A DNA stretch of 64,000 bases from an uncultured Chloroflexia bacterium (GTDB taxonomy: Bacteria; Chloroflexota; Chloroflexia; DTKN01). Both the position numbers and the translations under genes were made by a program. The first letter of the stretch is position 1; the number at the start of each line of letters is the position of its first letter. The notes beneath the pieces were generated by a model. The model did no database searches. It was given only the letters and a program-made list of their open reading frames with translations, and had not been told where the DNA came from. Shown in pieces: positions 11,553-29,297 of this stretch. Location: NCBI GenBank assembly GCA_964613665.1, contig CAZTIG010000003.1, forward strand, positions 78,565 through 142,564, written 5' to 3'.

Positions 11553-11564
11553 CGTCTCCTCCGT

Positions 11565-12839: not shown

Positions 12840-13478
12840 CTAGATCTCCGCTTCCGGCTCTTCCGTCTTGGCCCGCAATGCCTCGTTCAATCGCTGCAGC
12901 CCGACCTGCTCGGCCGTCTCCGGGCTCTCCATCTCGGCCGCCTTGGCCTCCTCCATGGCCCGCATGATCTCGGTAATGTCCTTTTCCTCCTCGGGCGGGC
13001 CGACGAGCTTCTCGGTGTCCTCCAGCGTGCTCAGGACCTGCTGGAACTTTTCCATGTGGAACTGCCCCTCGACGGAGGCGCTCTCCACGTAGCGCTGCAG
13101 GGTAGCGATGTCCATGCGGCTGATGATGCTGGAGATGCCCAGCTGCTGCAGCAGCCGCTCGTTCTCCTTGATCTGGGTAAAGCCATTGACGATACGCAGC
13201 TGCTTGGAGACGAACTCGAGCTGGCGGTCCATGTTGTGGGCCTGGACGTCCAACTCCTTGATCTTGGTCGCCAGGATGCGCCGCTGCCGCTCCGAGGGCT
13301 CGTCCTTCCCGCGCAGGAACAGGGACTGCTTCTGTCGCTCCAGCTCCTCCACCTTGCGCGACATCTTGGCCTGCTCCTGCTCCAGGCGGATCTTTTCCAT
13401 GCGCAACTCGTCCGTGGTGATGCTGCCGAGGTTGCGCTTGCGCTGGAACAGCCCCTTGATGACGTCGAGCGTTCCCAT
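12840..13478 (-). CDS. ESCRT-III/Snf7-like protein, copy 1
   Basis: 212 aa. N-terminal GLFQRKRN (cf. CHMP LFGRRK) and an ITTDELRMEKIRLEQEQAKMSRKVEELERQKQ helical hairpin. Acidic C-terminus ending in LQRLNEALRAK, which matches the MIM1-type LxxRLxxL(K/R) MIT-interaction motif. AAGGAGG RBS. Confidence 0.7.
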   Translation of the reverse strand: MGTLDVIKGLFQRKRNLGSITTDELRMEKIRLEQEQAKMSRKVEELERQKQSLFLRGKDEPSERQRRILATKIKELDVQAHNMDRQLEFVSKQLRIVNGFTQIKENERLLQQLGISSIISRMDIATLQRYVESASVEGQFHMEKFQQVLSTLEDTEKLVGPPEEEKDITEIMRAMEEAKAAEMESPETAEQVGLQRLNEALRAKTEEPEAEI

Positions 13479-13507
13479 GGTTCAGCCTCCTTCTTGTCTT
13501 TGCTCAC

Positions 13508-14344
13508 CTACTGCAACGAGATCGTCCATCCGAGACCGGGTATGTCCTGCAGAACGTAGCGGCGCTGCTTGTCCTGGGACATTGTGCGAAGAGCCAGCAG
13601 GGCGGTCTCCTCAGAGACCTCCAGGGCCTCGCAGACCTGCTCCAGGGTCAGATGGCCCTGAAGCGAATCGCCAAGCATCGCCTTCACCCGCTCCCGTACC
13701 CAGGCGGCTTCCTCTGCCGGCAGCCGCGGGGCAAAGAGCGCCGCCAGGCGCGGCATGCGCGGATCCAGCGGATGGTAGTGGAAGGTAAGGTCGTGCAGGT
13801 CCACCAGGTACGGCAGGAGCAGCGGGTGGGTGAAGGCATCGCCGCCGGCCGCGGCGATGTAGGCCACGGCCCCCCTGTCCCAGCCGCTGGTCGAGGCCAG
13901 TCCCGCGGCCAAGGCGAACTCGGCCTGCTCGGCCTCCTGGGCGCGCTCCTGGATCAGCGGCAAGAGGTCGGCCACGGTGGCCGGCCGGCTGTCGCTGCCC
14001 TGGCGCAGGTGCGGCTCGAGATGGGAGAAGACGGTCGCCTCCAGGCAGAGCCCCTTCTCCCCGCGGCCGGCGGGGGGTATGATGTAGCGAGAGCTGGCGT
14101 TGAGGGGAATACGGCCGCGCTGCTCCGGCTCCAGGAAGCTGACGGAGAGGATCTCCATACAACGGCCGGCCTGGTCGCGCTGGAAATGACAGGTGTCCAG
14201 GGGAGGCAGTCGTACCGGGCGTCCGCTCAGGGGATGGGTCAAGGAAGCCGCCTGGCCCATCCGCTGGTCAAACCGGCCCAGGTAGGCCAGTTCGCGCTGA
14301 CGGGCTTCCAGAGCGGCGACGGTCCGCGCCGGGATCTTGGGCAT
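13508..14344 (-). CDS. Hypothetical protein, first gene of the operon; possible C-terminal winged-helix
   Basis: 278 aa with GC3-rich codon usage. AAGGAGG RBS 8 nt upstream. Consensus sigma70 promoter upstream. C-terminal LTLEQVCEALEVSEETALLALRTMSQDKQRRYVLQDIPGLGWTI resembles an HTH/winged-helix fold. Confidence 0.55.
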   Translation of the reverse strand: MPKIPARTVAALEARQRELAYLGRFDQRMGQAASLTHPLSGRPVRLPPLDTCHFQRDQAGRCMEILSVSFLEPEQRGRIPLNASSRYIIPPAGRGEKGLCLEATVFSHLEPHLRQGSDSRPATVADLLPLIQERAQEAEQAEFALAAGLASTSGWDRGAVAYIAAAGGDAFTHPLLLPYLVDLHDLTFHYHPLDPRMPRLAALFAPRLPAEEAAWVRERVKAMLGDSLQGHLTLEQVCEALEVSEETALLALRTMSQDKQRRYVLQDIPGLGWTISLQ

Positions 14345-14413
14345 ACCTCTGGCCTCCTTCGGTCCCTCCCAGGCCGGACCTGTCCGCAGGTGATCCGGCT
14401 CCAGTTCGCCTTG

Positions 14414-14442
14414 AGTATAGCATGAAAAGGGGGGAATTGCAA
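14414..14442 (-). promoter_or_regulatory. sigma70-type promoter for the minus-strand ESCRT-like operon (-35 TTGCAA, 17-bp spacer, -10 TATACT)
   Basis: Plus-strand ttgcaa at 14437-14442 and agtata at 14414-14419 (reverse complement TATACT), with 17 bp between them. Confidence 0.5.
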
Positions 14443-14462
14443 GGTGGTGTGGGGAATGGATG

Positions 14463-14491
14463 TTGCTTCCGATCAGGGCCCGTAGTATAAT
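14463..14491 (+). promoter_or_regulatory. sigma70-type promoter for the ECF sigma gene (-35 TTGCTT, 17-bp spacer, -10 TATAAT)
   Basis: ttgctt 14463-14468, tataat 14486-14491. Confidence 0.55.
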
Positions 14492-14621
14492 CCTGGTCAG
14501 AGGGAGGAGTGTGGAACATGTGCTTCCCTCCGCTATGGTGGCGGACGAAAGAACCGTGAGGAAGACCAGGGCAACTCGCTCTTGGTGAAGATGGGCCAGC
14601 CCAAACCGAAAGGAGCACGCG

Positions 14622-15320
14622 ATGCATTCCTCCTCTATCGCCGAGTTGGCTCGGCGCTGTGCGGAGGAAATGGCCCGCTATCAGCGCGAGCGCCACGGCG
14701 ATTCCTCCTCATGCTTCGAGCTATTCCGCCGGGCACTGGAGCAGGGAGATGACGAGGCCTGGGCCTCGATCTACAGCCAATATCATCGCCTGGTGCGTGG
14801 ATGGCTGGGCAAGGCTCTCGGCAAGTCGGACTTTCTGGTCAACAGGGTCTTTGAGCGCTTCTGGCGCGCGACGAGCCCGCAGGGGTTGGCCAGGTTCGCC
14901 AGCCTGGGCTCAATCCTCGAGTACCTGAAACGGTGTGCGATCAGCGAAGCGGGGGACGAAGGGCGCCGCCTGAAAAGGAGACAGCAGGAGGAGCAAGCCC
15001 TCCACCATGTCCACGCCGTCATGTGCCAGCTTGGAACAGAGTTCTCCCCAGAGCAGGTCGTCGACAGAGTCGCTCAGGAGGAGCTATTCACATGCGTTAC
15101 CCAAGCCCTGCACAGCGTGGAGGAGCGTCTTGTCTTTCGCGCCATGTTCGAGTGGGGTCTGAAGCCCCGGATGCTCGTCGAACGCTGGCCGGACACCTTT
15201 GAATCCCCTCCGCAGGTAAGCCGGATCAAGGCACGCATCCTCCGGCGTCTCGCACGTGACAAGGTGCTGCGCGATCTCCTGGGCTGGGGTGGACAGAATG
15301 GCGATATCGGGGTCGACTAG
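14622..15320 (+). CDS. ECF-type sigma-70 family RNA polymerase sigma factor
   Basis: Region-2-like FELFRRALEQGDDEAWASIYSQYHRLVRGW and region-4-like HTH (RLVFRAMFEWGLKPRMLVERW). AAGGAG RBS. Confidence 0.7.
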   Translation: MHSSSIAELARRCAEEMARYQRERHGDSSSCFELFRRALEQGDDEAWASIYSQYHRLVRGWLGKALGKSDFLVNRVFERFWRATSPQGLARFASLGSILEYLKRCAISEAGDEGRRLKRRQQEEQALHHVHAVMCQLGTEFSPEQVVDRVAQEELFTCVTQALHSVEERLVFRAMFEWGLKPRMLVERWPDTFESPPQVSRIKARILRRLARDKVLRDLLGWGGQNGDIGVD

Positions 15321-15345
15321 TCGTTCTATAGACTGCGAGGAGTGA

Positions 15346-16125
15346 ATGGTGAGCAGGGTCGCTGCTGGCGAGGTGCCAGAGGACGCAGAAGTCATGGACG
15401 ATGCGTGTGATAGACCAGGGCACATCCGGGCGGAAGATCTCATGGCCTTTGTCGACGGCACTGCCGACGAGGTGACCAGGGAACACATCCGCCACTGTCA
15501 CGCCTGCGCCCGCGAGGCGCAGGAAATGGCCACTCTCGAGGCCATCCTGTCGGCGGGACTGTACCGCTATTCCTGTCCCTCATTTGAGCAGCTGTATGCC
15601 TATCAGCAGGGCGAACTCGTCGACAGCGACTACCTGATCGTGAGTCGCCACGTGCGGCAATGCCCACACTGTGCCCAGGAGTTGGCCGCCCTGGCGCGAG
15701 AAGAGCGGAGGAGCCTTGGCGAACGTCTCCACGCGACGCTCCAGGTCATCAGTGCCAGGCCGATGGGCCTCCAGATACAGCCCGCCGGCGCCCGGGGTCA
15801 AGGCGCGGAAGACAGCCCCCGGCCGGAAATCTACGGGGCAGGCGAAGTGGAGCTCCTCGTGACACTGCGTCCGGCTGTGTTCCAGCCAGGAGAATATGAT
15901 CTCGCGGGGCTGGTCCACACAGGGGGCCAGGTCCCGCAGGCAGTTGGCACGGCGAAGGTTGAGCTCTATCGAGGCCAGGACCTGGTCGCCATCACCAGTG
16001 TCAGCCCCCGCGGCCAGTTCACCATCCTCGCGGTGGAGCCGGGCTGCTACGAACTCGTCCTTCTCTGGGAGCACCGCGAGATCCACCTCGAGGGGGTGCA
16101 AGTTGGACCCCAGAGATCTGGCTAG
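15346..16125 (+). CDS. Anti-sigma factor, zinc-binding (ZAS-type HxxxCxxC) with a C-terminal domain
   Basis: REHIRHCHACAREAQEM and HVRQCPHCAQE motifs. Immediately downstream of the sigma gene. GAGGA RBS. Confidence 0.6.
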   Translation: MVSRVAAGEVPEDAEVMDDACDRPGHIRAEDLMAFVDGTADEVTREHIRHCHACAREAQEMATLEAILSAGLYRYSCPSFEQLYAYQQGELVDSDYLIVSRHVRQCPHCAQELAALAREERRSLGERLHATLQVISARPMGLQIQPAGARGQGAEDSPRPEIYGAGEVELLVTLRPAVFQPGEYDLAGLVHTGGQVPQAVGTAKVELYRGQDLVAITSVSPRGQFTILAVEPGCYELVLLWEHREIHLEGVQVGPQRSG

Positions 16126-19006
16126 GGCCCTCCTGCGCGCGGAAAGCGCCCAGGACCGCCAGGCCCTGTTGTCGCCCCAGGAAGAGGACTTTTACGTCCA
16201 GGTTGTAGGCATGCTCAAGGACGAAGTCGATCGGGAGCGGTTGCGTGACTCCCGGGCAGCGTGCAGAGCCGCTGACATTGCCGCTGAGGTGGCCGACTTC
16301 GCCGCTACGCAGCGTTGCCAGGCGCTTGCCGCGTGGGCACGGGGGAATGCCCTGTTCCACCTCGGCGACTTTGCTGAGAGCCTGCAGCTCTACCGGCAGG
16401 CGGCTGTGGCCTGTGAAGCCGAGGGGATGGAGGTCGAGGCAGCCCGCCTGGCCACCAACCAGGCCTACGCCCTGAAGAACCTGGGGCAGTACGACCAGGG
16501 CTTGCAAGCGGTCGAGACTGCCCTGGCCATCCTTCGCCGACACCCTGGATCACCCTTTCTGCCCAGCGTCCTGATGTGCAAGGGCACGCTCTGCCGCCTG
16601 GCCCGCCGCTTGGAGCCGGGCCTGGCTGCCCTTCTCGAGAGCGAACAGCTCTACGCCAGCATGGGCCAGGAGCTTGAGTGGGCCCGGGCAAGGATCAACC
16701 GGGCGAACGTCCTGGAGAACCTCGACCGCTTCGCCGAGGCCATCGCGCTACTGGAAGAGGCGCGGGCGGTCCTGCTCGCCCAGGAGTGCGCTCTGGAAGT
16801 GGCGCGGGCTGACCTGAACCTGGGGATCACCCTGGCGCGGCTCGATCGCTACGATGAGGCGATCGCAGCTTTCGGCCGGGCAGAGGATGGCTTCCGCCGG
16901 CTTGGCAATGATATGGAGGTAGCCGTGGTCGAGCTGTACCGGGCCGACCTCTATGCGCACTTCCACCTGGATGAAGCCCTGCTGCAGACTCTGGACCGCG
17001 ACTATCGGACCTTCGATGAGCGACAGATGCAGGCGCAGGCAGCCCGCACGCTGTTGTACAGGGCGGCAGCCTACCGCCGTCTCGGCGACCTGGTCCAGGC
17101 GGAACCACTGCTGGTCCGCGCGCAGGAATCGTACAGACGGATGGGCGATGCAGTTGGGGTGCAGTGGGCCGCGCTTGAGCGGGCGACACTGTGGCACAAA
17201 GTGGGAGAATCGGCCCGGGCCTTGCCCGCGGCGATGGAAGCGGCGGCCCTGTTACGCGATCGCGGCATGCCCGTGCGGTCGGCAGCGGCATCTCTCCTGG
17301 CTGCTCACTGCCAACTGGCGCTGGGGCAGCCCACCGCGGCCGCCGGACAATACGAGGCGGTCCTGCGGCTGGCAGACATGCTCGAGGTCCCCTCTCTGCG
17401 CTACCAGGCGCAGCATGGCCTGGGGCGCGTGGCCACGCAGCAGGGCCGGCTGGAAGAAGCCGCCGGGCACTTGCGCCTGGCAATCGGGGCAATCCAGGAC
17501 CTGCGACAGCGACTGCCGGTGGAGGAATTCCGCACCGGCTTCCTGGAAGACAAACTGCAGGTCTATCAGGATGCCGTCCTTCTCTGCCTGCAGTTGAACC
17601 ACCTGGAAGAAGCCTTCGGGTACGTCGAGCAGGCCAAGTCAAGCACTCTCGTGGACCTGATGATCAGCAGGCTGGCCCGCCAGGACCCGGGCACGGCTTC
17701 GCCCAGCGGTGACCTGGCCGTCCGCCTCCGGACACTTGAAGAGAAGCTCACGTGGCACTATCGAAAGCTGGAGACGCCCGATGAGGAAGGTCGCGGCGGA
17801 GAGGCGGGCGCCCGAACGGAATCTACTACATGGTCAGATATCCGGGCAGTCGAGCAGGAGATCATACAGACCTGGCAGCGGATGCAGGAGACCCAGCCCC
17901 TTTTTGCGGCGCCCGGCCATCCCGAACCCTCTACCTTCGCTGCGACGCAGGCCCAGCTGGAGCCGCAGCAGGTCCTGGTGCAGTACTATATAGCGGGGGA
18001 TTCGCTGCACGCATTTGTCGTCGGTCCGGAAGGATTTCGCGGCCACGGACGGCTCACCGCTACCCCCGCCCAGGTCGACGACGCGCTGGCAGCGCTGGCC
18101 ACAGTCCTGAGCAGTGTTCCCCACGCCAGCCCCGCCTATGTCGGCAGCAGTCTCGAAGGGCTGGCCCGGCAGCAGCTGGGCTGGCTATACGACGACCTGC
18201 TCCGCCCCCTCGAGCGCTATCTGGCTGGGGCGGCCCGCCTGCTCATCATCCCCGACGGAGCACTCTTCGCGGTACCCTTCCACGCGCTATACGATGGTCA
18301 ACAACACCTTCTGGAGCGCTGCGAAAGCACCTACGCGCCGAGCATCCAGGCATTGCGCCTGTGCCAGGATGCCTATCGCCGCCGCGCTGGCGCACCGGAG
18401 CGGAGCCTGGCCATCGGGTACAGCTGCGCCGGCGCACTGCCCCATGTCCACCGCGAGACCGCCGCTTTCATCCGTGCCTTCCCTGAAGCGGCTGTCCTGA
18501 CCGACGATCAGGCCACCCTTGCCAACTTCCACCAGCATGCGAGCCGCAGCACCCTGCTGCACATCGCGACCCACGCGGTCTTCCGCCGCGACAATCCCCT
18601 GTTCTCTGCCCTGCAGATGGCCGGCCCAGACTGGTTGCGGGTCTGGGATCTTGCGGGCATGCAGCTCAACAGCCCACTGGTCATACTGAGCGCCTGCGAG
18701 ACAGGCCGCCACCACCTGCGCGGGGGCGACCTCCTCGGTCTGACGAGGGCCTTTATCTGTGCGGGAGCCGCTGCGGTGCTGGGCAGCCTGTGGACCGCCG
18801 ACGATGAATCGACGGCGATGCTGATGGAGCACTTTTACCATCATCTGGCCGGCGGGGAGAATGCACCAGCCGCACTACGAGAGGCCCAGCTCGCTGTGCG
18901 TGCATGGGAACAGCCGGGGGCAGAGGAAACCACGCATCCCTACGCGCACCCCTTCTACTGGGCTCCCTTCTACCTCCTGGGCTCCCCATCGATCCGGTGG
19001 GGCTAG
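16103..19006 (+). CDS. TPR-repeat protein with a C-terminal CHAT (caspase-like) protease domain
   Basis: Multiple TPR-like repeats in the first ~500 aa. C-terminal CHAT signature (LLHIATHAVF...LVILSACETG...GAAAVLGSLW). Start uncertain: TTG 16103 (overlaps the anti-sigma stop by 23 nt) or ATG 16211. The track ORF start at 15896 is rejected. Confidence 0.7.
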   Translation: MDPRDLARALLRAESAQDRQALLSPQEEDFYVQVVGMLKDEVDRERLRDSRAACRAADIAAEVADFAATQRCQALAAWARGNALFHLGDFAESLQLYRQAAVACEAEGMEVEAARLATNQAYALKNLGQYDQGLQAVETALAILRRHPGSPFLPSVLMCKGTLCRLARRLEPGLAALLESEQLYASMGQELEWARARINRANVLENLDRFAEAIALLEEARAVLLAQECALEVARADLNLGITLARLDRYDEAIAAFGRAEDGFRRLGNDMEVAVVELYRADLYAHFHLDEALLQTLDRDYRTFDERQMQAQAARTLLYRAAAYRRLGDLVQAEPLLVRAQESYRRMGDAVGVQWAALERATLWHKVGESARALPAAMEAAALLRDRGMPVRSAAASLLAAHCQLALGQPTAAAGQYEAVLRLADMLEVPSLRYQAQHGLGRVATQQGRLEEAAGHLRLAIGAIQDLRQRLPVEEFRTGFLEDKLQVYQDAVLLCLQLNHLEEAFGYVEQAKSSTLVDLMISRLARQDPGTASPSGDLAVRLRTLEEKLTWHYRKLETPDEEGRGGEAGARTESTTWSDIRAVEQEIIQTWQRMQETQPLFAAPGHPEPSTFAATQAQLEPQQVLVQYYIAGDSLHAFVVGPEGFRGHGRLTATPAQVDDALAALATVLSSVPHASPAYVGSSLEGLARQQLGWLYDDLLRPLERYLAGAARLLIIPDGALFAVPFHALYDGQQHLLERCESTYAPSIQALRLCQDAYRRRAGAPERSLAIGYSCAGALPHVHRETAAFIRAFPEAAVLTDDQATLANFHQHASRSTLLHIATHAVFRRDNPLFSALQMAGPDWLRVWDLAGMQLNSPLVILSACETGRHHLRGGDLLGLTRAFICAGAAAVLGSLWTADDESTAMLMEHFYHHLAGGENAPAALREAQLAVRAWEQPGAEETTHPYAHPFYWAPFYLLGSPSIRWG

Positions 19007-19182
19007 CTGCCTTGTGCTCTGACCAGGACATCGTCTGCCCTGGCAAGGGTGTGTCTCTTCCATTCAACTGATGATCCCAGCGAGCCGAACTCAGCACGTC
19101 CCCCGGCAGGCGTGAAAACACGACAGCGCACGTTCTATAGGATGACACGCCGAGCATGCAGGTTCTGAAAGGAGCAGATACC

Positions 19183-22100
19183 ATGGCAAAACGAAATCAG
19201 TTGACGGCCTATGTGTCGATCCTGCTCCTGGTATGTACGCTGGCAACCGCGGGCGCGACCGGGGCCGCCCCTCCAAGCCACCATCCGCCTGGCGGCGAGA
19301 CTAGGCCCCGGCCAGAAGCGGCAGACCGGAGTCCGGTCGAACCGGAAGACTTGCCGGCGCCACTCCCCCGCGACTGTGATGGCATCACGCCTGTCCCGCC
19401 GGCGTGCTGTGTCTACGGGTACGTCTACGAAGGCAGCCTGCCCGTCGGTGCCGCCAACGTGCACATCGCGAGCCCTTACGGCAGCCTCGACACCACAACC
19501 GCCAGCGGTCCGTTCAGTGACCAGCCCTACTATCAGGTCGATCTCAGCTCGCCACCCCTCAGCACCACCGTGGGCACCCCCATTACCTTCACCGTCTCCT
19601 ACGGCGGCATGACCGCCAGCCGGTCGTGGACCGTACAGAGCGATGGCCAGCAGGTCGACCTGGGCCTCGCTCTCCTGGGAGGACAGCTCCCCGTGACGCC
19701 CACTGCGTGGACCCGCCTGACGACCAATCCCTACGACGACCTGTATCCCGATTGGTCACCCGGGGGGAGTCAGATTGCCTGGACCCACTTCGGCGACAGC
19801 TGGTATCGGGACGTCTGGCAGATGGCGGCCGACGGAACGGGCGCCACTCCCCTCACCGATGGGGAAGTAGACGAAGCCGCGGACTATGCACCTGCCGGCC
19901 AGCAGATCGTCTTTGTCCGCTACCACGACGACACCTGGACCGACATCGTGGTCAAGGACCTGGAGCTGGGAGGCGAAACCGTCATCCGCGGGAGTGGCTA
20001 CAATGGGCACCCCCGCTGGTCACCCGATGGCGCTCGGATCGTCTTCCAGAGCGCCGACCACATGAACGGCACCTACCATCTCTATACCATGAATCCCGAT
20101 GGCACAGACGTGTCCCAGCTCACCAACGCAGGTTGGATCAACTCGTCTCCTGAATGGTCGCCGGACGGTTCGCGTATCCTGTTCGTCTCCGATCGCGCTG
20201 GTGGCTACAGGGACGAGGTGGCGTACCTGTACGTCATGGACGCCGACGGCAGCAACGTCCGCCAACTGACCAGCGGCGCGGTTCGTGAGGGCCTGGCCAG
20301 CTGGTCGCCCGACGGCCGGCACATCGCCGTGACCCGCTCCCTGGGTACTCCTTCCAGCCACATCTATGTGCTGCTCGAGGACGGGACAAGCGTGGTCCAG
20401 TTCACAGACTCTCCGGGGACCGAAGGATACCCCGCATGGTCGCCCGCTGGCGACACGCTGGCCTTTGCCGCGGAGGTCACTGGAACCTGGGACATCTACG
20501 TGGTAGACTTTCCCCTGGCCCAGGATCGGATCTACTTCAGCTCCAACCGGAGCGGACACCACCAGCTCTACTCGGTGAACCCGAACGGCAAGGATCTTCT
20601 GCGCCTTACCGACCACGCCTCCGACGACCGCTGGCCGGATCTGTCCGACGACGGCCGCACGCTGGTGTTTGCCTCCACGCGCACAGGGGACTGGGAGGTA
20701 TTCAAGGCCAATGCCGCCGCAGGCGATCCGCAGAACCTCACCAACGATCCAGGCCTGGATCGGGTGCCCCGTATCTCGCCCGACAGCAGCCGGATCGCCT
20801 ATCAGCACTGGACCCCGACCACGGAAGACGACCTGTATCGCATGGCCAGCGACGGCAGCGAAATCGTGTGCTTGACAGGTGAGCCCAGTGATGACGAGAA
20901 CCCCTCCTGGTCCCTGGACGGCACGCTGGTGTACTACGACTCCGATCGCCTGGCCGGCGGCTACGTGGACGATATCTGTCGCATCACCGCGGATGGGACT
21001 GACCCCACTTGCCTAACCAACCACCCTAGCGACGACACCTGGCCGGCCGTCTCTCCCGATGGCACCCGGATCGTGTTCTCCTCGGCGCGCTCTGGAAACT
21101 ATGAGCTGTATGTCATGGATGCCGCCGATGGCGGCAACGTCCAGCAGCTCACCAACCATCCCGCGGGCGATACCCAGCCGGCCTGGTCGCCCGACGGATC
21201 GAGAATCGCTTTCGTGTCCGACCGCGACGGAAACCAGGAGATCTACACGATGGCGGCCGACGGCACGGATCTGGTCCGGGTGACCCAGGATCCCGCCGAC
21301 GACATCGATCCGGACTGGGAGTGGGCCGCCACCCCGACGGGGTGGACTCGGCTCCGGCGGATACAGATTACCAGTGAGCCTACATGGCAGGGGCAGCCCA
21401 CCGTGCTCCCGGCCAATGGCCACTACTACGTGGCCCATACCAACATCGTGTCGGGAGACTGGTGTGACGGCAACTGGGATGTTTTTGTCCGCGAGTTCGA
21501 CGCCGACTGGAATTATGTGCGGGAGATCCGCATCACCGAGGCCCCCACCGCGGAGCAGCATGCCGCCATCGGCTTCGCGGATGGCAAGTTCAGCGTGGTC
21601 TACTCCTCGCGCGATACGGCCTGCGCAGGCAGCGGCCATGTCTTTGTGCAGGAGTACGACGCCGGCTGGAACTACCTGCGTACCATCCAGCTGACCGCCG
21701 AAGGATGGCTGGAGGAGTACCCCTCCTTGCTGCTGCTGAACGACAACTACTACGTGGGGTACAACTCCTACGAGACGGGGGACTCGGAGATCTACTTCAA
21801 GCGCTACGACACCAATTGGAACTTTATGGAGAAAATCTCCGGGCTTACCGACAGCGAGCCCGGCCTGCAGGAGCAGCCCAACCTGGCTTCCAACGGCACA
21901 GAGTGGGCCGTCTCGTACATCTCATACCAGGGCGGAGACTGGCACGTCTACGTGCGCACCTTTGACCTGGACTGGGCTCCCCTGCGCTGGTTTCGGATCG
22001 ATACCGCCCCGGCCGCCGACAAGCAGTACCTGATCTATGCCGACGGTCAGTACCACATCTCGTACGCCTCACAGGAATCTTCCCCTCCGGGGGTCTTTGT

Positions 22101-24816
22101 CAACCACTATACCGCGGATTGGACCCTGATCCGCAAGGAGTGGATGACCGAGGGGATGTACGCGAGCGACTCGTTTCTGGCCGACCTGGGGGAACAGTAC
22201 CTCCTGGCGTTCGACTCCGGCGGCGACGCCTACGTGGACCTGTATGTCGCAGGGCCGCAGGCGGTGCGAGCAGCCTTCGCTGCTGTCCCCCTGGTTGGAC
22301 CAGCCCCCCTGGAGGTGCATTTCGCCGACCGTTCCAGTGGCGACGTCAGCGCCTGGACCTGGGAGTTTGGCGATGGGGCCAGCGGCGGAGCCCGTTATCC
22401 GGTCCACACCTATGAAGTGACTGGCACCTATACCGTCTCCTTGACCGTGGTCGGCTGGGGAGGGACGGACAGGGCGGTCGCTACCGACTACATTCACGTA
22501 CCGGCGGGCCCCATCTCCCCGCCGCTGGCCACCATCACCGCGATCACACCCAGCCTGGCCATGCAGGGGCGCGACATAGTCCATTTCGACGGGTGTCCCT
22601 GCCAGGATCAGGAGGAGGGAGGGGAGAGCATTGTCGCCTACAACTGGCGCTCCGACCAGGATGGCTGGTTGAGCGACCAGGAGGATTTTGCCCTGCAGGC
22701 CTCCGCGCTCTCTACGGGCACCCATGTTATCTTCTTCCAGGTTCAGGATGACGAGGGGGAGTGGTCTGCCGAGGTGAGCCGGACCCTGAACATACTGCCC
22801 TGGCCGGCCGGGGCGCGCACACTCATCCTGGCAAACCGCAGCAAGCTGGAGGCGCTGTACAGCGGGGCCGACGCTGACCAGGTGCTGAGCCGTCTCAGCA
22901 GCCTGGCGGCCCACGATCGCGTACGCGGGATTGTAGTGCTCGTGGAGGCTGATCCGGCTGTGGCTGCCGCCTATGCCGCCTGGGAGGCAGATCCCACCAG
23001 CACCGCCCAGGCCAACGCCGTGACGGCGAGCATCAAGGCCGTGATCACCAACTACTGGTCAACCTTCCCAGGGCTGGAATACCTCGTGATCGTCGGTGAC
23101 GACCGCGTCATTCCCTTTCGCCGGGTGCCCGACCAGACCGCCTATCCAGAGAGCCACTATCAAGACGTCTCCTGCACGAGCACGGTCGGCGCTGCGCTGT
23201 GCGACGACATGACCCTGACCGACGACTACTACGCCGACGCCGTCCCCACGGTGCCGGACGACCCAGGTTGGGACGGGCATGATCTATACATACCGGATCT
23301 CGGCGTGGGCCGGCTCGTCGAAACGCCGGCTGAGATCAACGCCCAGGTCGATACCTTTCTGGCGGGGAACGAAGTGGGGGTGGATGGGGCCATCGTCACC
23401 GGATACGACTTTGTGCGAGACAGTGCCCAGGCCATGTGCGCCGCATTGAGGGACGACGGCATCACTACCGACTGCACCCTGGTCGGCAACTCCTGGGATC
23501 GCGACCTCTTCGTCGGCCGCGTGCTGAACACCCGTCACGTCGCAGCTGCGGTCAACAGCCATGCCAACCACTACACCATCGGCACGCCCTCGGGCGACGT
23601 CTATTCCAGCGATGTAGTCGGGGCCCTGGCAGACCTGGCCCGCGCGCTCTTCTACAGTCTCGGCTGCCACGCGGGCCTGAATGTGCCGCCAGACAACCCT
23701 GTCGAGCCACTGGACCTACCCGAGGCGCTGGTCCAGCAGCGCGCCAACCTGGTCGCCAACACCGGCTATGGCTGGGCCTATATCACCTCCATCGGCCTGT
23801 CGGAGCAACTGATGCTCGACCTGACCGAGCGCCTTACCTATGGCCAGTCCGCGACCGTAGGGCAGGCACTATCCGCCGCCAAGCACGAGTACTACCTGAA
23901 CGAAGGCAGTTTCGATTACTACGATGAAAAGATCATGATCGAGAGTCAGCTCTGTGGCCTGCCGATGTACCGGTATCAGACACCCGGCGGAGCCATGGCG
24001 CGGTCGGGCGCTGGCGCGGAGCCACCCGTGCGCCAGCAGTTCCATAGTACCTCGCTGGGGGATGGGCTGACCGTCAACAGCATCTCCTATCAGTTCCCGG
24101 CCGTGACACCACAATGGACCGAGCTGGGGATGTACTACACATTCGGGGGCAAGGTTCACAACGGACCGGGGCAACCGCTCCAACCCAAGTACGTCGCCGA
24201 CGTGTCGTTCCCGCAGACCAAGGCGCACGGGGTGGTCTTCCGCGGCGGCACCTACACGGACGTGGCCGTCTTTGACCCGGTGGTGGAGCAGGCCATCACG
24301 ACCACGGACATGCTCCCTGAGCCGGCCTTTGACGCGCCGTACTGGTACCCGGCGGTGTTCTATCGCCTCAATCGCCTCGAGCCGGCAGCCTCGCTGGTCA
24401 CCTTGCTGGGTCAGTTCAATGCGCCTGGCATGACGGAGCGTCTCTATGATCGCCTGGGCTTCGACATTTACTACCACACGACCTCCAGCGATTGGCAGGC
24501 CCCCGTGCTCAGCGGCATGCGCAGTTGGCTGGTGACCGGCACAGCCGCCGTCGTCGTCCAGGTTGGCGATGCGTCGGGAATCGCGGCCGTTGTCGTCGCG
24601 TACGACCAGGGACAGGGTTCCTGGTCCAGCGTCGCCCTGCAGGCGGATGCGGGGAGCTGGCAGGGCAGCTTCCCGGCACAGGCCGGCACGAGCTTCGTCG
24701 TGCAGGTGGTGGACGGGGCCGGGAATGTGCTGGTCCAGGATAACGGCGGCGCCTACTTCCACCCTGGCGACGGGCTGAACCAGATCTACCTGCCGCTGGT
24801 AGTGCGAGGCCAGTGA
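19183..24816 (+). CDS. Giant secreted multidomain protein: signal peptide, CarbopepD-reg-like domain, many PD40/TolB-type propeller repeats, BNR/Asp-box-like repeats, PKD domain, C-terminal clan-CD (C25/C11-like) cysteine peptidase-like domain
   Basis: N-terminus MAKRNQLTAYVSILLLVCTLATAGATGAA. WSPDGSRIAF...DIY PD40 repeats. PKD: VHFADRSSGDVSAWTWEFGDGASG...YTVSLTVV. Putative catalytic dyad context VNSHANHYTIG and ALFYSLGCHAG. AAAGGAG RBS. Confidence 0.75.
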   Translation: MAKRNQLTAYVSILLLVCTLATAGATGAAPPSHHPPGGETRPRPEAADRSPVEPEDLPAPLPRDCDGITPVPPACCVYGYVYEGSLPVGAANVHIASPYGSLDTTTASGPFSDQPYYQVDLSSPPLSTTVGTPITFTVSYGGMTASRSWTVQSDGQQVDLGLALLGGQLPVTPTAWTRLTTNPYDDLYPDWSPGGSQIAWTHFGDSWYRDVWQMAADGTGATPLTDGEVDEAADYAPAGQQIVFVRYHDDTWTDIVVKDLELGGETVIRGSGYNGHPRWSPDGARIVFQSADHMNGTYHLYTMNPDGTDVSQLTNAGWINSSPEWSPDGSRILFVSDRAGGYRDEVAYLYVMDADGSNVRQLTSGAVREGLASWSPDGRHIAVTRSLGTPSSHIYVLLEDGTSVVQFTDSPGTEGYPAWSPAGDTLAFAAEVTGTWDIYVVDFPLAQDRIYFSSNRSGHHQLYSVNPNGKDLLRLTDHASDDRWPDLSDDGRTLVFASTRTGDWEVFKANAAAGDPQNLTNDPGLDRVPRISPDSSRIAYQHWTPTTEDDLYRMASDGSEIVCLTGEPSDDENPSWSLDGTLVYYDSDRLAGGYVDDICRITADGTDPTCLTNHPSDDTWPAVSPDGTRIVFSSARSGNYELYVMDAADGGNVQQLTNHPAGDTQPAWSPDGSRIAFVSDRDGNQEIYTMAADGTDLVRVTQDPADDIDPDWEWAATPTGWTRLRRIQITSEPTWQGQPTVLPANGHYYVAHTNIVSGDWCDGNWDVFVREFDADWNYVREIRITEAPTAEQHAAIGFADGKFSVVYSSRDTACAGSGHVFVQEYDAGWNYLRTIQLTAEGWLEEYPSLLLLNDNYYVGYNSYETGDSEIYFKRYDTNWNFMEKISGLTDSEPGLQEQPNLASNGTEWAVSYISYQGGDWHVYVRTFDLDWAPLRWFRIDTAPAADKQYLIYADGQYHISYASQESSPPGVFVNHYTADWTLIRKEWMTEGMYASDSFLADLGEQYLLAFDSGGDAYVDLYVAGPQAVRAAFAAVPLVGPAPLEVHFADRSSGDVSAWTWEFGDGASGGARYPVHTYEVTGTYTVSLTVVGWGGTDRAVATDYIHVPAGPISPPLATITAITPSLAMQGRDIVHFDGCPCQDQEEGGESIVAYNWRSDQDGWLSDQEDFALQASALSTGTHVIFFQVQDDEGEWSAEVSRTLNILPWPAGARTLILANRSKLEALYSGADADQVLSRLSSLAAHDRVRGIVVLVEADPAVAAAYAAWEADPTSTAQANAVTASIKAVITNYWSTFPGLEYLVIVGDDRVIPFRRVPDQTAYPESHYQDVSCTSTVGAALCDDMTLTDDYYADAVPTVPDDPGWDGHDLYIPDLGVGRLVETPAEINAQVDTFLAGNEVGVDGAIVTGYDFVRDSAQAMCAALRDDGITTDCTLVGNSWDRDLFVGRVLNTRHVAAAVNSHANHYTIGTPSGDVYSSDVVGALADLARALFYSLGCHAGLNVPPDNPVEPLDLPEALVQQRANLVANTGYGWAYITSIGLSEQLMLDLTERLTYGQSATVGQALSAAKHEYYLNEGSFDYYDEKIMIESQLCGLPMYRYQTPGGAMARSGAGAEPPVRQQFHSTSLGDGLTVNSISYQFPAVTPQWTELGMYYTFGGKVHNGPGQPLQPKYVADVSFPQTKAHGVVFRGGTYTDVAVFDPVVEQAITTTDMLPEPAFDAPYWYPAVFYRLNRLEPAASLVTLLGQFNAPGMTERLYDRLGFDIYYHTTSSDWQAPVLSGMRSWLVTGTAAVVVQVGDASGIAAVVVAYDQGQGSWSSVALQADAGSWQGSFPAQAGTSFVVQVVDGAGNVLVQDNGGAYFHPGDGLNQIYLPLVVRGQ

Positions 24817-24970
24817 GGCACAGAGGAGCATTGTTTCGCGCGCGGCCTCCTCGAGCAGTGGCAACCTGATGCCGTACCGCCGAACGACGCGGCCCAAGGC
24901 GTTCTGGAAAGGGGCATGTGACGAGTGGCAGGTGCGCTGCACCGTTTTCCCCATACCGTGGAGGTGGGCC

Positions 24971-27100
24971 ATGGAGACAGAATACACGCTCCGCCAGGCG
25001 CGTTTGCCGGCCCGGTCAATCGAGATCATGATCACGGTCCTGGGCCTCATGGGTGCTGTGTTCGGGCTTCTCTTCTACGAGCGGGCCTTCCCGTTGGCCG
25101 CGTTGGACATCGACCTCACGCGCGCCGAGATCAGCCAGCGGGCTTGGCAGTACATGCAAGCCCAGGGCTACGGGCTCGAGGACTACCAGTTCGCCCAGAC
25201 ATTCGGGTACGACTGGTGGGCACTGAACTATGTACAGAGCGTATTGGGGGTTTCGGCAGCGAACCAACGGGTCCGCGAAGATGCCCTGCCTCTCTGGTAT
25301 TGGCATGCCCGCTGGTTCCGCCCTTCCCAGGAGGAGGAGTTCTCCCTCTATCTGGCCCCCGATGGCGAAGTGGTGGCCCTTTTCCATAACCTGGCCGAGG
25401 ATACGCCAGGGGCAAGCCTATCCCAGGAGGAAGCCCGGGCCCTGGCCGAGACCTATCTGACCCAGGACCGTGGATGGAATCTCGCCGATTGGGAGTTGAG
25501 CTCGAGCTCGAGCCAGGAGCAGCCCCGTGGGCGAGTCGACCACGGCTTCGAGTGGAAGCGGCGGGGCTTCACCCTGGGGGAAAGCGAACTGCGCCTGCGC
25601 GTCGGTGTGCAAGGGGACCGGGTGAGCGCCTACGACTACTGGTTGAAGATACCCGACTCGTTCTGGCGGGGCTTTGTGGGCGAACACGACCTGGGGTTCT
25701 TCCTTGATGATCTCTGCTACTGGATCGGTTTTGCCGGCTTGGGCGTCGCAGTCGTCGTCGCCTACATATGTGCCATTCGGCGAGGCGCCCTTTCCTGGCG
25801 GGCGGGCCTGTGGCCGGCCGTGGTGGTGGGCGGGGTTGCCCTGCTGGTCAGCGCGAACAACCTGTCGCTGGCACAGGCGTGGTATTGTACGTCGGGCAAC
25901 TACACCCTGTTCTGGCTGGAACAGATTCTCTACATGCTGCTCGACGCTGCGACTCTTGCCATCACCATCGCCGTCTTGTGGACAGGCGCCAGATACCTGG
26001 GAAAACTGGTCTGGCCGCGCCAGGACAAGATCCTGCCGCGCGGCGGCGATCCATGGAGTATGCTGGCCCGCTCCACATGGCGTGGACTGATGCTTAGCGG
26101 CGTTATGTCGGCCTATACGGTCCTCTTCTACATAGTGGCGCAGGCGCTGGGAGCGCGGGTCCCGCTGTCTGTCGGGTACGGCAATCTGCTCTCGACGCCA
26201 TTCCCTTTCCTCGGACCCATAGCGGATGGCCTGTTCCCGGCGATAACCGAGGAGTTCCTCTTTCGCCTGGCAGGCATTGCGCTCATCCTGTGGTGGACCC
26301 GCAGGTCAAGACTGCCGCAGGGTGTTCGCTACGCGTTGGCCCTCTTGGTTCCCGGCTTGTTGTGGGCGTGTGCTCACCTGAGCTACGTACGGGAACCCTA
26401 CTACCTGAGGGGAATCGAGCTGCTGATCTCGGCCGTATTCCTGGAAGGATTGGCCTTCCTCTACTTTGACCTGACTACGGTGTTCGTCGCCCACTTCGCC
26501 TTTAACGCCCTGGGGTCGACCTGGCTGTTGCTCCGCTCTGGCGAGCCGTATCCCACCTTCTCTGGGCTGCTTGCCGTTGCCATCCTGCTCGCTCCAATCA
26601 TGCCCGGGCTAGTACGGGCGCTGCGGCGACGGCTCCGTGGCGAGCAGCAGGAACCGCCTCCGGTGCGGATTAGAGAGGCGGGGGAGGGCGATCTGGCCGG
26701 CCTGGCAGCTCTGCCCCTGGATATTCCCGATTGGGCCGGCCTGATATCCGATCCCGCCGTAGTGGTGCTGATGCTGCGGGTGGGGGAGCAGCTTGCCGGC
26801 GCGGCGATCGGCCGAATACGCGCAGATGGCTGTGGCCAAGTTGAGGTGGTGTATGTGGCATCTCGCTGGCGCCGGCGCTACTGGGGCAGCGCGTTGGCCG
26901 AGCAGCTGCAGGCCCGTCTGCAGAGACTCGGTGCCCAGGAGATCGGAGCGTCGGTGGAGAAAGGTGACCGCGTGTCCACGGCCTTCTGGGCCAACCTGGG
27001 ATGGGAGCTGGCGCGGCAGGTCTTTGCGTCGCGTGCGAGGGCAAGAGCCAGTACGGGGCAACGCGACGGCCCAGCGCCAGCCACATTGAGGGCCAGGTAG
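24971..27100 (+). CDS. Polytopic membrane protein with a CPBP (CAAX-protease family) intramembrane metalloprotease domain and a C-terminal GNAT acetyltransferase domain
   Basis: CPBP motifs EEFLFR, HLSYV, FAHFAFN. C-terminal GNAT-like RADGCGQVEVVYVASRWRRRYWGSALAEQL. GGAGGTGG RBS. Confidence 0.65.
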   Translation: METEYTLRQARLPARSIEIMITVLGLMGAVFGLLFYERAFPLAALDIDLTRAEISQRAWQYMQAQGYGLEDYQFAQTFGYDWWALNYVQSVLGVSAANQRVREDALPLWYWHARWFRPSQEEEFSLYLAPDGEVVALFHNLAEDTPGASLSQEEARALAETYLTQDRGWNLADWELSSSSSQEQPRGRVDHGFEWKRRGFTLGESELRLRVGVQGDRVSAYDYWLKIPDSFWRGFVGEHDLGFFLDDLCYWIGFAGLGVAVVVAYICAIRRGALSWRAGLWPAVVVGGVALLVSANNLSLAQAWYCTSGNYTLFWLEQILYMLLDAATLAITIAVLWTGARYLGKLVWPRQDKILPRGGDPWSMLARSTWRGLMLSGVMSAYTVLFYIVAQALGARVPLSVGYGNLLSTPFPFLGPIADGLFPAITEEFLFRLAGIALILWWTRRSRLPQGVRYALALLVPGLLWACAHLSYVREPYYLRGIELLISAVFLEGLAFLYFDLTTVFVAHFAFNALGSTWLLLRSGEPYPTFSGLLAVAILLAPIMPGLVRALRRRLRGEQQEPPPVRIREAGEGDLAGLAALPLDIPDWAGLISDPAVVVLMLRVGEQLAGAAIGRIRADGCGQVEVVYVASRWRRRYWGSALAEQLQARLQRLGAQEIGASVEKGDRVSTAFWANLGWELARQVFASRARARASTGQRDGPAPATLRAR

Positions 27101-27552
27101 TCCGCAGGACATCGGCCCGCTGGCGTGCCACCTCTGCCAGCAGTGCCCGGCAGCCAGAAACAAGGAGGGCACCGCTGGCGTGGCCGGCGCACGCGCACCA
27201 AACCGCCGCTCCGCGGGGCTGGTCCGTGCGTAGCGTCTTCGCATCATCGGCAGTTACTTGTGCCGCCCGTCGATGTTCGTAGTTTCCTCGGCTGGCATGG
27301 TCGCCTCCGGTGACTGCTCTCCGTTGATGGAACGGACCAGGCACGTGAGGCAGCCTTGGGCCTCCTCTTCGCTCTCCTGAAGGGACGCGGGTGAGATCAC
27401 CCCTGGATACCGCCGCGGATGGACCCAGCCCCGGAGGTAGCATGAGTCCATCCTGAATGGATCACGACTACATATGCAGGGATGCTTTGCGTCTTTGTCA
27501 CACATGTGCTATCATAGGATCAGTCTGCATGCACACCGTGAAAGGAGTCCGG

Positions 27553-29277
27553 ATGGATCCAACGGGGCAGACGCTAGGGAAGTACCGACTGCTGGAGCAG
27601 CTGGGCCGCGGCGGCTTCGCCACGGTCCACCGCGCCCTGGACACCTCCCTGGACCGCGAGGTCGCCTTGAAGATCCTCGACCCGCTCCTCATGCGCGACC
27701 AGGCCTGGACCAACCGCTTCCGCCGCGAGGCCCGCGCCGTGGCCCGCCTCAGCCATCCCTACATCGTCACCATCTTCGAGGTCGGCGAGGCCGAGGGCCG
27801 CCTCTTCCTGGCCATGCAGCTCATCCCTGGCGGCAGCCTGGAGGACCGCATCGCCCAGCACGGCGCCCTGCCCTGGAAGGAGATCCCCCCCATCTTCGCC
27901 CAGGTCAGTGATGCCCTGGACTATGCCCACGGCCAGGGCGTGCTGCACCGCGACCTCAAACCCTCCAACATCCTCCTGGGTGAGCGCGGGGCCATGCTCA
28001 GCGACTTTGGCTTTGCCCGCCTGGTGGGCGAGAGCAGCGTCAGCGTCTCCTTGAGCGGCGGCGTCGTCGGTACGCCGAACTACATTGCCCCGGAGGTCTG
28101 GGAGAACAGGCCTGCCGGGCCGTACACGGACATCTACGCCCTGGGGTGCGTGCTCTACGAGATAGTCGCTGGCAAGCAGCTTTTCACGGGCGACAGTGTG
28201 GCCGCGGTGATGCGCGCCCACTTCAGGCCACTGCAGCTTCCCACGGAATGGCCTGCCGGCGTTCCGGTCCGCCTGGCGGAGGTGCTGCAGGCGGCCCTGG
28301 CCAAAGAGCCGGGAGATCGCTACGCCCACGCCGCGGAGATGTTGGCCGAACTGACTGCCCTCGCCGAGGAGAGCCTGGCGGTGCCGTACCACGCCCTGGA
28401 GCAGGCCCTGGCAGCGCAGCGCTGGGATGAAGCGCTGGCCCTGGCCGGGCAGGTCCGCGCCGAGTCGCCGTCCTACCGCAACGTGGTAGCGCTGGAGAGA
28501 GCCGCGCTGGCCGGCCGCGAGGCCGCGGCGCGCACCGCCCAGGCCCAGGTATGGCGCAAAGAGGCCAAAGCCGCCCTGGCCGAGCGCGACCGGGAGGGCG
28601 CCGAGCTGGCCGGCCGCAAGTGGCTGGAGCTGGCCCCGCAGGACCCGGCGGCACAGGAGTTCCTCGCGCGGGTGCGGGCAGCACCGACTACTCCACCGGC
28701 ACCGGCCCGTGGCATACCGACGACGGCAGCGCCACCAGCCACGCACGTCCGCTGTCCCTACTGCGGGGCCATCAACCAGCCCTCTGCCCTGTTCTGCTGC
28801 GGGTGTGGCAGGGCCCTGGCCGACACAGCGGCGGCACTGGCACAGGCCGCACCCCCAACACGCGTGCCCGGCTATTGTCCCAGTTGTGGTGCTTCGAACA
28901 AGGCCACGGCGCGCTTCTGCAGCCGCTGTGGTCGGGTCTTGGCCGCTTCCGCATCCCGTCCGCCCACTGCAAGCGCCGGGGTTGGCGGACTGACCAAGCG
29001 ACCGATCCTCTGGCCCTGTGTCGTCCTCGCGATGACGGGCAGTCTCTTCGGCATAGTCGCGGCGGTCGGACTGCTGTCGTGGCGGAACTGGGGCCGCGTG
29101 ATGACGATGGTCATCTTCTTGGTATTCGGCGTGCTACTCCTCCTTGCGAGTATAGCAGCTTTAGCTGAGGGAGAGCAGCTGGTTACAGCGCTGGTCGCCA
29201 TGATCGGTGGGGCCGTCTACTTGGGCGCCTACTTCTACCTGTCCTCCGCCCGCGTGCGGGCCTGGTTTCGCAAGTAG
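27553..29277 (+). CDS. Ser/Thr protein kinase with two zinc ribbons and a C-terminal TM helix
   Basis: GRGGFATVHRA, HRDLKPSNILL, DFGFA. RCPYCGAINQPSALFCCGCG and YCPSCGASNKATARFCSRCG. C-terminal hydrophobic segment. AAAGGAG RBS. Confidence 0.85.
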   Translation: MDPTGQTLGKYRLLEQLGRGGFATVHRALDTSLDREVALKILDPLLMRDQAWTNRFRREARAVARLSHPYIVTIFEVGEAEGRLFLAMQLIPGGSLEDRIAQHGALPWKEIPPIFAQVSDALDYAHGQGVLHRDLKPSNILLGERGAMLSDFGFARLVGESSVSVSLSGGVVGTPNYIAPEVWENRPAGPYTDIYALGCVLYEIVAGKQLFTGDSVAAVMRAHFRPLQLPTEWPAGVPVRLAEVLQAALAKEPGDRYAHAAEMLAELTALAEESLAVPYHALEQALAAQRWDEALALAGQVRAESPSYRNVVALERAALAGREAAARTAQAQVWRKEAKAALAERDREGAELAGRKWLELAPQDPAAQEFLARVRAAPTTPPAPARGIPTTAAPPATHVRCPYCGAINQPSALFCCGCGRALADTAAALAQAAPPTRVPGYCPSCGASNKATARFCSRCGRVLAASASRPPTASAGVGGLTKRPILWPCVVLAMTGSLFGIVAAVGLLSWRNWGRVMTMVIFLVFGVLLLLASIAALAEGEQLVTALVAMIGGAVYLGAYFYLSSARVRAWFRK

Positions 29278-29297
29278 GGACCGATGACGGTGCAGCG

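Follow-up and report, generated by a model that had tools for sequence, protein, structure and literature searches.

A soluble sigma/anti-sigma/TPR-CHAT module beside a secreted gingipain-family protein in Chloroflexota: a candidate protease-gated switch

What might a cell control with a sigma factor, an anti-sigma factor and two caspase-fold proteases encoded side by side? The question is raised by a 64,000-nucleotide stretch of DNA from an uncultured Chloroflexia bacterium (assembly GCA_964613665.1, contig CAZTIG010000003.1, positions 78,565 to 142,564; G+C ~68%), which we call the window. Five consecutive genes on its plus strand, at 14622-27100, encode an extracytoplasmic function (ECF)-type sigma factor, a zinc-finger anti-sigma factor, a TPR-CHAT protease, a giant secreted protein and a CPBP-GNAT membrane protein (Table 1). 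The initial annotation had described these five same-strand genes, and all of them are present, with corrected starts for the TPR-CHAT and CPBP-GNAT genes. Regulated cleavage of anti-sigma factors is known mainly from membrane-spanning systems (DegS/RseP) and, more recently, from CRISPR-guided craspase.

Only part of the five-gene cluster is a conserved unit. Comparison with relatives shows that the arrangement of genes 1-3, together with the type of gene found in the fourth slot, is beyond chance; gene 5 does not share this conservation. We propose, tentatively and with a little less than even confidence, that the unit is a cytoplasmic proteolysis-gated sigma switch controlling a secreted protease.

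Table 1. Positions of the genes and promoter elements in the window
Feature	Position	Strand	Basis
Sigma-70-type promoter facing the divergent 278-aa gene (TTGCAA, 17-nt spacer, TG-TATACT)	14414..14442	-	Consensus scan
Sigma-70-type promoter of the sigma/anti-sigma/CHAT operon (TTGCTT, 17-nt spacer, TATAAT)	14463..14491	+	Read from sequence
Divergent ECF-type sigma factor, 232 aa (predicted)	14622..15320	+	Weak NCBIfam ECF matches, family profile, AlphaFold model
Soluble anti-sigma factor, 259 aa (predicted)	15346..16125	+	Pfam zf-HC2, conserved columns, AlphaFold model
Cytoplasmic TPR-CHAT caspase-like protease, 967 aa (predicted)	16103..19006	+	Pfam CHAT and TPR families
Candidate sigma-dependent promoter of the giant gene (GGCG-TGAAAAC, 11 nt, CGTT-C-TATAGG)	19109..19144	+	Recurrence beside sigma/anti-sigma genes
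Secreted C25 (gingipain-family) protein, 1877 aa (predicted)	19183..24816	+	Pfam, signal peptide, family alignment
CPBP (Rce1-like) intramembrane protease fused to a GNAT acetyltransferase, 709 aa (predicted)	24971..27100	+	Pfam and motifs

Results

Conservation of the locus

We fetched 70 genome loci around homologues of the sigma factor and compared them by tblastn and all-against-all clustering (loci and proteins of relatives carry L and P numbers below). Synteny of the CHAT gene was counted in the 54 Chloroflexota genome loci whose sequence extends 4.5 kb or more beyond the sigma homologue on its downstream side. Sigma, anti-sigma and CHAT genes follow one another on the same strand and in the same order in 36 of these loci, and CHAT adjoins the pair in another orientation in five more, so that it is kept beside the pair in 41 of 54. 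Clustering recovered the sigma family in 72 loci, the anti-sigma family in 64 and CHAT in 50. The gene immediately after the sigma gene is an anti-sigma homologue in 48 of the 67 loci scored by tblastn and in 64 of the 72 scored by clustering. Packing is tight, with neighbouring genes frequently abutting or overlapping: the anti-sigma and CHAT genes overlap by 23 nt in the window, and several relatives have start/stop overlaps. Sigma homologues were found only in records labelled Chloroflexota. The trio singled out by the initial annotation is indeed a conserved, tightly packed unit across this phylum. An Rfam scan of 13000-28000 gave no match.

The sigma and anti-sigma factors

The first gene is hard to recognize from sequence models. 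Its product has no Pfam match and scores weakly and below cut-off against NCBIfam ECF models (PRK12519, E = 2.8e-6, 27 bits against 222; TIGR02937, E = 2.9e-4, 20.5 bits against 42.9), so family sequence models do not place it in ECF (group IV); a precomputed PF04542 match exists for only 3 of 70 homologues. Searched against the PDB, the family profile finds SigW (E = 9e-4) and sigma-E, at E values of about 1e-3. The AlphaFold model (predicted local distance difference test score, pLDDT, 90) has an N-terminal helix followed by sigma-2 (about residues 29-137) and sigma-4 (about 143-220), which is the two-domain fold without sigma-1.1 or sigma-3. All 50 PDB matches listed for this model are sigma factors or sigma-containing complexes, and the best are mostly ECF sigmas. 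Moreover, its sigma-2 superposes on region 2 of sigma-E, SigC and SigW with template modelling (TM) scores of 0.6-0.7 and a root mean square deviation of ~3 Å, and a cognate anti-sigma gene lies directly downstream. Because of the sub-threshold ECF matches, the family-profile matches to SigW and sigma-E and the sigma-only structural matches, we consider that the gene product is, as judged from its predicted fold, a very divergent ECF-type sigma factor. Three cysteines of the family (Cys13, Cys31 and Cys105) show little or no variation. Two belong to the N-terminal extension and the third to sigma-2, a pattern suggestive of a redox or metal site within the sigma factor itself.

The second gene is more readily placed. 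Its product matches Pfam zf-HC2 (PF13490; E = 1.3e-6, 28.9 bits against a cut-off of 22.2) in two stretches, and its N-terminal helical part carries two tandem HxxxCxxC domains of the zinc-binding anti-sigma (ZAS, CHCC) type. The predicted zinc ligands are C21/H47/C51/C54 in the first and C77/H102/C106/C109 in the second. H47/C51/C54 and H102/C106/C109 are invariant, C21 and C77 supply the fourth ligands, and all eight positions are conserved; zinc binding is thus predicted for both domains. Neither the sequence nor the model has a transmembrane or hydrophobic segment. In the model (pLDDT 84) the two helical ZAS domains are followed by a strand, a loop and a C-terminal beta-sandwich (residues 161-253), for which some homologues have a precomputed CarboxypepD_reg match. 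Matches to models of RsrA and ChrR are weak (E = 3e-6 and 5e-6).

The only low-confidence part of this model is the flexible loop at residues 141-160, which bears a conserved Arg150-Gly151 (nt 15793-15798). Of 37 loci with CHAT, 35 have this Arg-Gly, compared with 3 of the 6 loci that lack CHAT (Fisher p = 0.014). Variant anti-sigmas also occur: metagenomic P0123 and P0126 have a TPR segment of ~150 residues between the two ZAS domains, and that at L046:4064-5248 is fused to BNR-like repeats.

The TPR-CHAT protease and the gene that follows it

The CHAT gene starts at TTG 16103, downstream of a GAGGGGG ribosome-binding site, and gene callers likewise give the 967-residue product. A TPR array (about residues 40-560) precedes the CHAT domain (residues 691-961; PF12770, E = 2e-64). 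The dyad of this clan CD peptidase, His824 (nt 18572-18574) and Cys865 (nt 18695-18697), is 100% conserved in 44 module-linked homologues. A sequence search against the PDB gave nothing useful for this protein. No signal peptide or transmembrane helix is predicted in it, and the sigma factor, the anti-sigma factor and CHAT are all predicted to be cytoplasmic.

A subtilase of family S8 lies directly downstream of CHAT, on its strand, in 31 loci, mostly after a gap of 12-50 nt. About 19 of 27 such S8 partners lack a signal peptide, and about a third have lipoprotein-like signal peptides. In loci without S8, its place is taken mostly by large secreted proteins with a YLP-type C-terminus (described below). 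Several of these have clan-CD peptidase domains, of the C25 type in the window and L008/L077 and of a C11-like type in L013 and L021. The coupling of CHAT to a second protease that had been noted in the window therefore has a counterpart among the relatives compared, where the gene after CHAT nearly always encodes another protease or a secreted protein.

Promoters and a recurrent motif

The regulators appear to be transcribed from a sigma-70-type promoter (Table 1) followed by a leader of ~125 nt. The -35 hexamer of this promoter agrees with the consensus at just 3 of 6 positions, which is why a consensus scan missed it. Sigma-70-type -10 boxes (TAnAnT) also stand upstream of the sigma genes in close relatives, and a search upstream of the sigma genes of 71 loci for an autoregulatory ECF-type bipartite motif found none above shuffled controls.

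A different element precedes the giant gene. Its core, GAAAAC-N16-TATAGG, lies at 19114-19141, and the -10-like hexamer ends 41 nt before ATG 19183. It is the sole match in the window at up to 2 mismatches (0.04 expected). At least six other lineages carry it too; wherever the contig includes the sigma gene, the motif shares that gene's strand. It adjoins the sigma/anti-sigma genes, in part with CHAT, in L008/L077, L078, L079, L021, L017, L013, L046 and L004, and lies just downstream of a YLP-box C11-like gene in L136, a contig without regulator genes. In L008/L077, L078, L079, L021 and L017 it stands upstream of the first gene after the regulators. The genes that the motif mostly precedes are mutually non-homologous, and their products all have signal peptides; among these are a C25 giant, a C11-like protein and a DUF7948/SBBP protein. 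In three lineages a copy directly precedes the anti-sigma gene: that of L021 sits between the sigma and anti-sigma genes, and those of L013 and L046 reach into the 3' end of the sigma gene. These copies suggest feedback on the anti-sigma factor in those lineages.

A position weight matrix built from eight instances of the motif and scanned over 1.2 Mb returned 13 sites, comprising the eight training sites, two L008 duplicates (identical in sequence to L077) and three new ones (in L046, L013 and L004) that directly adjoin sigma/anti-sigma genes. All 13 lie beside the module and on the sigma-gene strand. A metagenome scan gave 70 matches, of which four are genuine further module sites that add little independent support. 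About 45 others, in soil contigs (L084-L152), are a single 32-nt site antisense in a DEAD-box helicase gene, which we rejected as a coincidental match, multiplied because those soil bacteria are abundant; six more are a hairpin and were likewise set aside as not being module sites.

From co-location alone, we infer that 19114-19141 is a promoter used by this sigma factor. The regulators, behind a sigma-70-type promoter, are in this way separated from an output gene that lies behind a distinct motif. The initial annotation had looked to the sigma regulon for a connection with the neighbouring promoters, and our motif search bears this out in part: an element is found before the giant gene, and none in the control region shared with the divergent operon (14345-14621).

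The giant secreted protein and its C-terminal tag

The giant was initially described as a secreted clan-CD-like protease with PD40 and PKD modules and a His/Cys dyad; it can now be assigned to family C25, that of the gingipains. A Sec signal peptide (residues 1 to ~27) is followed by PD40 propellers (~214-708), a repeat region, a PKD domain (~1032-1106), the C25 peptidase domain (~1233-1576) and further beta domains. When the C-terminal 738 residues were scanned alone, Peptidase_C25 matched with E = 2.7e-12 (47 bits against a cut-off of 23). Among 143 family representatives His1460 (nt 23560) is conserved in 93% and Cys1495 (nt 23665) in 91%, and catalytic activity is predicted from this conservation. 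Alignments thus uphold the His/Cys dyads attributed earlier to both large proteases. The C25-like region belongs to a large family (4110 cluster representatives); a sequence search of the PDB detected no similarity to solved structures.

After the signal peptide comes a Cys-rich domain (about residues 64-175, window 19372-19707) with the pattern C-D-G-x-T-P ... C-C-x-x-G-Y-V-Y. No Pfam model covers it, and it is common to the otherwise different YLP-box proteins of L013, L021, L077 and L136.

The giant ends in IYLPLVVRGQ (nt 24784-24813), which identifies it as a protein with the YLP-box putative sorting motif: it scores 15.4 bits against NF053834 (cut-off 10) and 14.9 bits against NF050076, just under the cut-off of 15. 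The pattern, hydrophobic-YLP-hydrophobic-hydrophobic-x-R/K, is characteristic of protein C-termini; in our set of open reading frames 13 of 21 occurrences fall within the last 16 residues, against 0.9 expected. Secreted proteins, many of them encoded beside the sigma module, in L008, L013, L021, L044, L045, L050, L051, L067, L069, L078, L081 and L136 also carry the tag, as do at least 54 of the top 150 members of the C25-like family. We considered the tag as a new sorting signal and rejected this, since NCBIfam already lists a "YLP-box putative sorting motif"; our literature search found no paper mentioning YLP-box. In L078 and L079 the third gene upstream of the sigma gene encodes a sortase.

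Neighbouring genes

The CPBP-GNAT gene more likely starts at ATG 24971, with GGAGGTG upstream, than at 24869. Its product matches the Rce1-like family (26.1 bits against a cut-off of 22.4) and GNAT (E = 2.4e-8), and has EExxxR and HxxxN motifs and about eight hydrophobic segments, as expected for a CPBP/Rce1-like protein. The family is conserved across Chloroflexota with 43-58% identity over the full length. Its homologues in three other contigs have neighbours unrelated to the sigma module, and the 70 other genome loci have no CPBP gene within 10 kb of their sigma genes. Scans at up to 2 mismatches and with the weight matrix found no motif copy in 24817-24970, upstream of this gene. We therefore rejected CPBP-GNAT as a component of the module or a processor of the YLP tag, given its absence near the module elsewhere and the unrelated neighbours of its homologues; it is probably an unrelated neighbour. 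It is followed on the plus strand (27457-30911) by two consecutive Ser/Thr protein kinase genes whose products have C-terminal zinc-ribbon domains.

On the other side of the module, 14345-14621 holds two back-to-back sigma-70-type promoters and, by the same two scans, no copy of the motif. The one at 14414-14442, to which the initial annotation had drawn attention, faces the divergent operon and does not belong to the module. The divergent minus-strand operon (8262-14344) encodes an AAA ATPase, 278-, 212- and 215-residue proteins, a double-zinc-ribbon protein and a 651-residue protein. The ATPase belongs to the classic clade and is closest to Cdc48/VAT (E = 1e-77), with Vps4 more distant (E = 6e-51); it has a weak MIT match below cut-off (E = 0.005) and PADLOC IetA matches. 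The 278- and 212-residue proteins have no Pfam or PDB match, and the 215-residue protein no family match. The 278-residue, 212-residue and ATPase genes do not lie beside the sigma gene in relatives, where the upstream genes are unrelated. The divergent operon is a neighbour and not a component of the module.

Elsewhere in the window, tandem repeats with a 7-nt period (GGTTACA-like) and CTTCCTG-type repeats at 14-nt spacing occur at 1314-1362 and 3345-3456, and a pair of 46-nt direct repeats 73 nt apart at 1446-1564. We considered these as CRISPR arrays and rejected them; none is an array.

Discussion

How might these parts work together? In the switch that we propose, the housekeeping-type promoter at 14463-14491 would co-transcribe the sigma, anti-sigma and TPR-CHAT genes, and the soluble double-ZAS anti-sigma would hold the sigma factor inactive. 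The TPR array may sense an intracellular cue, on which CHAT would cleave the anti-sigma factor, with the flexible loop around Arg150-Gly151 as the likely site. Freed sigma factor could then use the GAAAAC-N16-TATAGG promoter to express the secreted C25 YLP-box protease. We read CHAT as cleaving the anti-sigma factor because of the architecture of the locus and because of two precedents, Csx29/Csx30 and DdvA.

In the craspase system (Cas7-11, Csx29, Csx30 and CASP-sigma/RpoE), the TPR-CHAT protease Csx29 cleaves Csx30, an inhibitor of an ECF sigma factor, and this cleavage is proposed to relieve sigma inhibition (PMC10028731). That system likewise places a TPR-CHAT protease beside an ECF-type sigma factor and a soluble sigma inhibitor (PMC10028731). 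However, searches of the window found no Cas7-11, no CRISPR RNA (crRNA) and no CRISPR array, our CHAT protein scores 38 bits against the Csx29 model NF041237 (cut-off 300) and falls outside that family, and the inhibitor is a tandem ZAS protein rather than Csx30. The closest relative with CHAT, L077, encodes full-length type III-I gRAMP Cas7-11i (1829 bits) and Cas10i at 610-4570 on the minus strand, 5-9 kb upstream of its sigma/anti-sigma/TPR-CHAT operon, with PBP and PRK genes in between. Cas7-11i and Cas10i were found neither in the window nor in any locus other than L077; on these grounds, and with no array in the window, we rejected a CRISPR link of the module.

DdvA of Myxococcus xanthus is a ZAS anti-sigma fused to a TPR-CHAT domain, and proteolytic release of its sigma factor, DdvS, is proposed (PMC11506125). 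There, too, a CHCC zinc anti-sigma and an ECF sigma are tied to a TPR-CHAT domain with a His-Cys dyad (PMC11506125). Yet DdvA is a single membrane-spanning polypeptide whose TPR-CHAT part is periplasmic and dimeric and has an incomplete active site, whereas the proteins described here are separate, soluble and encoded by separate genes, neither with a transmembrane helix. The anti-sigma factor here also has two ZAS domains and a beta-sandwich, and the output is a secreted protease rather than a cyclic oligonucleotide-based antiphage signalling system (CBASS)/CRISPR island. The module would thus act like craspase/Csx30/CASP-sigma and DdvA/DdvS in its proposed logic while belonging to neither, because the Csx29 score is far below threshold and Cas7-11, an array, a fusion and a transmembrane helix are all absent.

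Two further comparisons concern the genomic context and the output. Actinobacterial ECF54 sigmas lie near carboxypeptidase(-regulatory), subtilase and CHAT proteins, and protease control has been proposed for them (review, PMC8999054); they are described as lacking an anti-sigma factor (PMC7826278). The likeness is one of genomic context only, in that relatives of our locus have a CarboxypepD_reg-like anti-sigma factor, CHAT and S8. The phylum differs, the beta-sandwich protein here clearly carries ZAS motifs, and in the window the C25 giant replaces the subtilase. The giant resembles the gingipains (C25, clan CD) in its above-cut-off C25 match, in a His and a Gly-Cys at gingipain-like spacing, and in being secreted and multidomain with Ig-like and PKD modules. 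Unlike them it has large N-terminal PD40 propellers, and it lacks the C-terminal domain of type IX secretion and carries the 10-residue YLP-box tag instead.

Several observations weigh against a switch gated by CHAT. The link between CHAT and the anti-sigma factor is one of context and precedent. In 13 of the 54 loci the sigma/anti-sigma pair has no CHAT gene closer than 10 kb, and L078 keeps the pair, the motif and the target gene without an adjacent CHAT, so the pair can work without it. The Arg-Gly comparison has six loci only on its CHAT-less side. The CHAT-S8 pair shifts as a unit relative to the sigma/anti-sigma genes and can sit apart from them; because CHAT is so tightly paired with S8 in 31 loci and separable from the sigma/anti-sigma genes, it may serve S8 rather than the anti-sigma factor. 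The spacing of the motif, with CGTT only 11 nt after AAC, is unlike that of a textbook ECF promoter. Finally, a thiol- or zinc-based ZAS mechanism could act instead of proteolysis or in addition to it.

Taken by itself, this last mechanism would make the module a redox or metal switch without regulatory proteolysis, in which the ZAS domains release the sigma factor on thiol oxidation or zinc loss, while CHAT and the downstream protease would be either outputs encoded at the same place or unrelated partners. RsrA/SigR is the model for such thiol- or zinc-triggered release. The weak RsrA and ChrR matches, the conservation of all eight zinc-ligand positions, the three conserved cysteines of the sigma family, and the 13 loci without CHAT, one lineage of which keeps motif and target gene, all speak for it. 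We nevertheless judge it unlikely: the CHAT gene of the window shares the regulators' sigma-70-type promoter and does not lie behind the output promoter, its dyad is intact and it is kept beside the pair in 41 of 54 loci, and loci without CHAT tend to have lost the Arg-Gly of the loop. Redox sensing, moreover, is not a property of most ZAS anti-sigmas (discussed also in PMC11506125). Equally unlikely in our view is that CHAT and S8 (or a clan-CD protease) form a self-contained two-protease effector, acting in cell death, conflict or development in filamentous bacteria, with CHAT as an output and the sigma pair regulating only transcription. Caspase-type proteases and ECF sigmas are indeed predicted in conflict systems of multicellular bacteria (PMC8195603), CHAT and S8 are inseparable in 31 loci and move as a unit, most S8 partners would by their lack of a signal peptide be cytoplasmic like CHAT, and the motif before the anti-sigma gene in L021, L013 and L046 means that anti-sigma and CHAT could be sigma-dependent there. 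However, PADLOC returned only weak, generic domain matches on the locus, and the window has no S8 gene: its CHAT gene lies upstream of the motif promoter and its secreted protease gene downstream, and a cytoplasmic CHAT cannot act on the giant after export.

The initial annotation went further and saw in all five genes an envelope-stress cascade that includes the CPBP protease and feeds a divergent operon likened to the endosomal sorting complex required for transport (ESCRT). The five genes do adjoin on one strand, no plus-strand terminator is predicted between the giant and CPBP-GNAT genes, and one other contig (L081) has a YLP-box protein gene two genes upstream of a CPBP-GNAT homologue. 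Most of what we found contradicts this cascade, which we consider very improbable. The envelope-stress part is not supported, since the regulators are predicted to be cytoplasmic, no anti-sigma factor spans the membrane and no regulator has a membrane or periplasmic part. CPBP-GNAT falls away with the absence of CPBP genes near the module in the 70 loci and the unrelated neighbours of its homologues. Nor is the link to the divergent operon supported: the promoters in 14345-14621 are of sigma-70 type, the motif is absent there as it is from 24817-24970, relatives have different upstream neighbours, and the ESCRT-like identity of the operon is itself only putative.

We return, then, to the proteolysis-gated sigma switch as our preferred reading. 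A wider version of it is possible, and we hold it with clear doubt: a CRISPR-independent, craspase-like switch, widespread in Chloroflexota and possibly the same as the ECF54 context, in which CHAT would cut at the Arg-Gly loop and the sigma factor would turn on secreted YLP-box proteases, with an output slot interchangeable between S8, C25 and C11.

If true, a free-standing, soluble TPR-CHAT/anti-sigma/sigma operon would make caspase-like proteases general transcriptional triggers in bacteria. Its three proteins would form a minimal, defined system, with candidates for both the promoter and the cleavage loop, for biochemistry or for the engineering of protease-gated switches. It would also assign a regulator to a large, uncharacterised secreted gingipain-like family (>4000 cluster representatives) and tie the same regulator to the catalogued but unstudied YLP-box sorting tag, and it may explain the ECF54 group, reported to lack an anti-sigma factor. 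The module is well defined and can be tested as a proteolysis-triggered gene switch that works without a CRISPR system.

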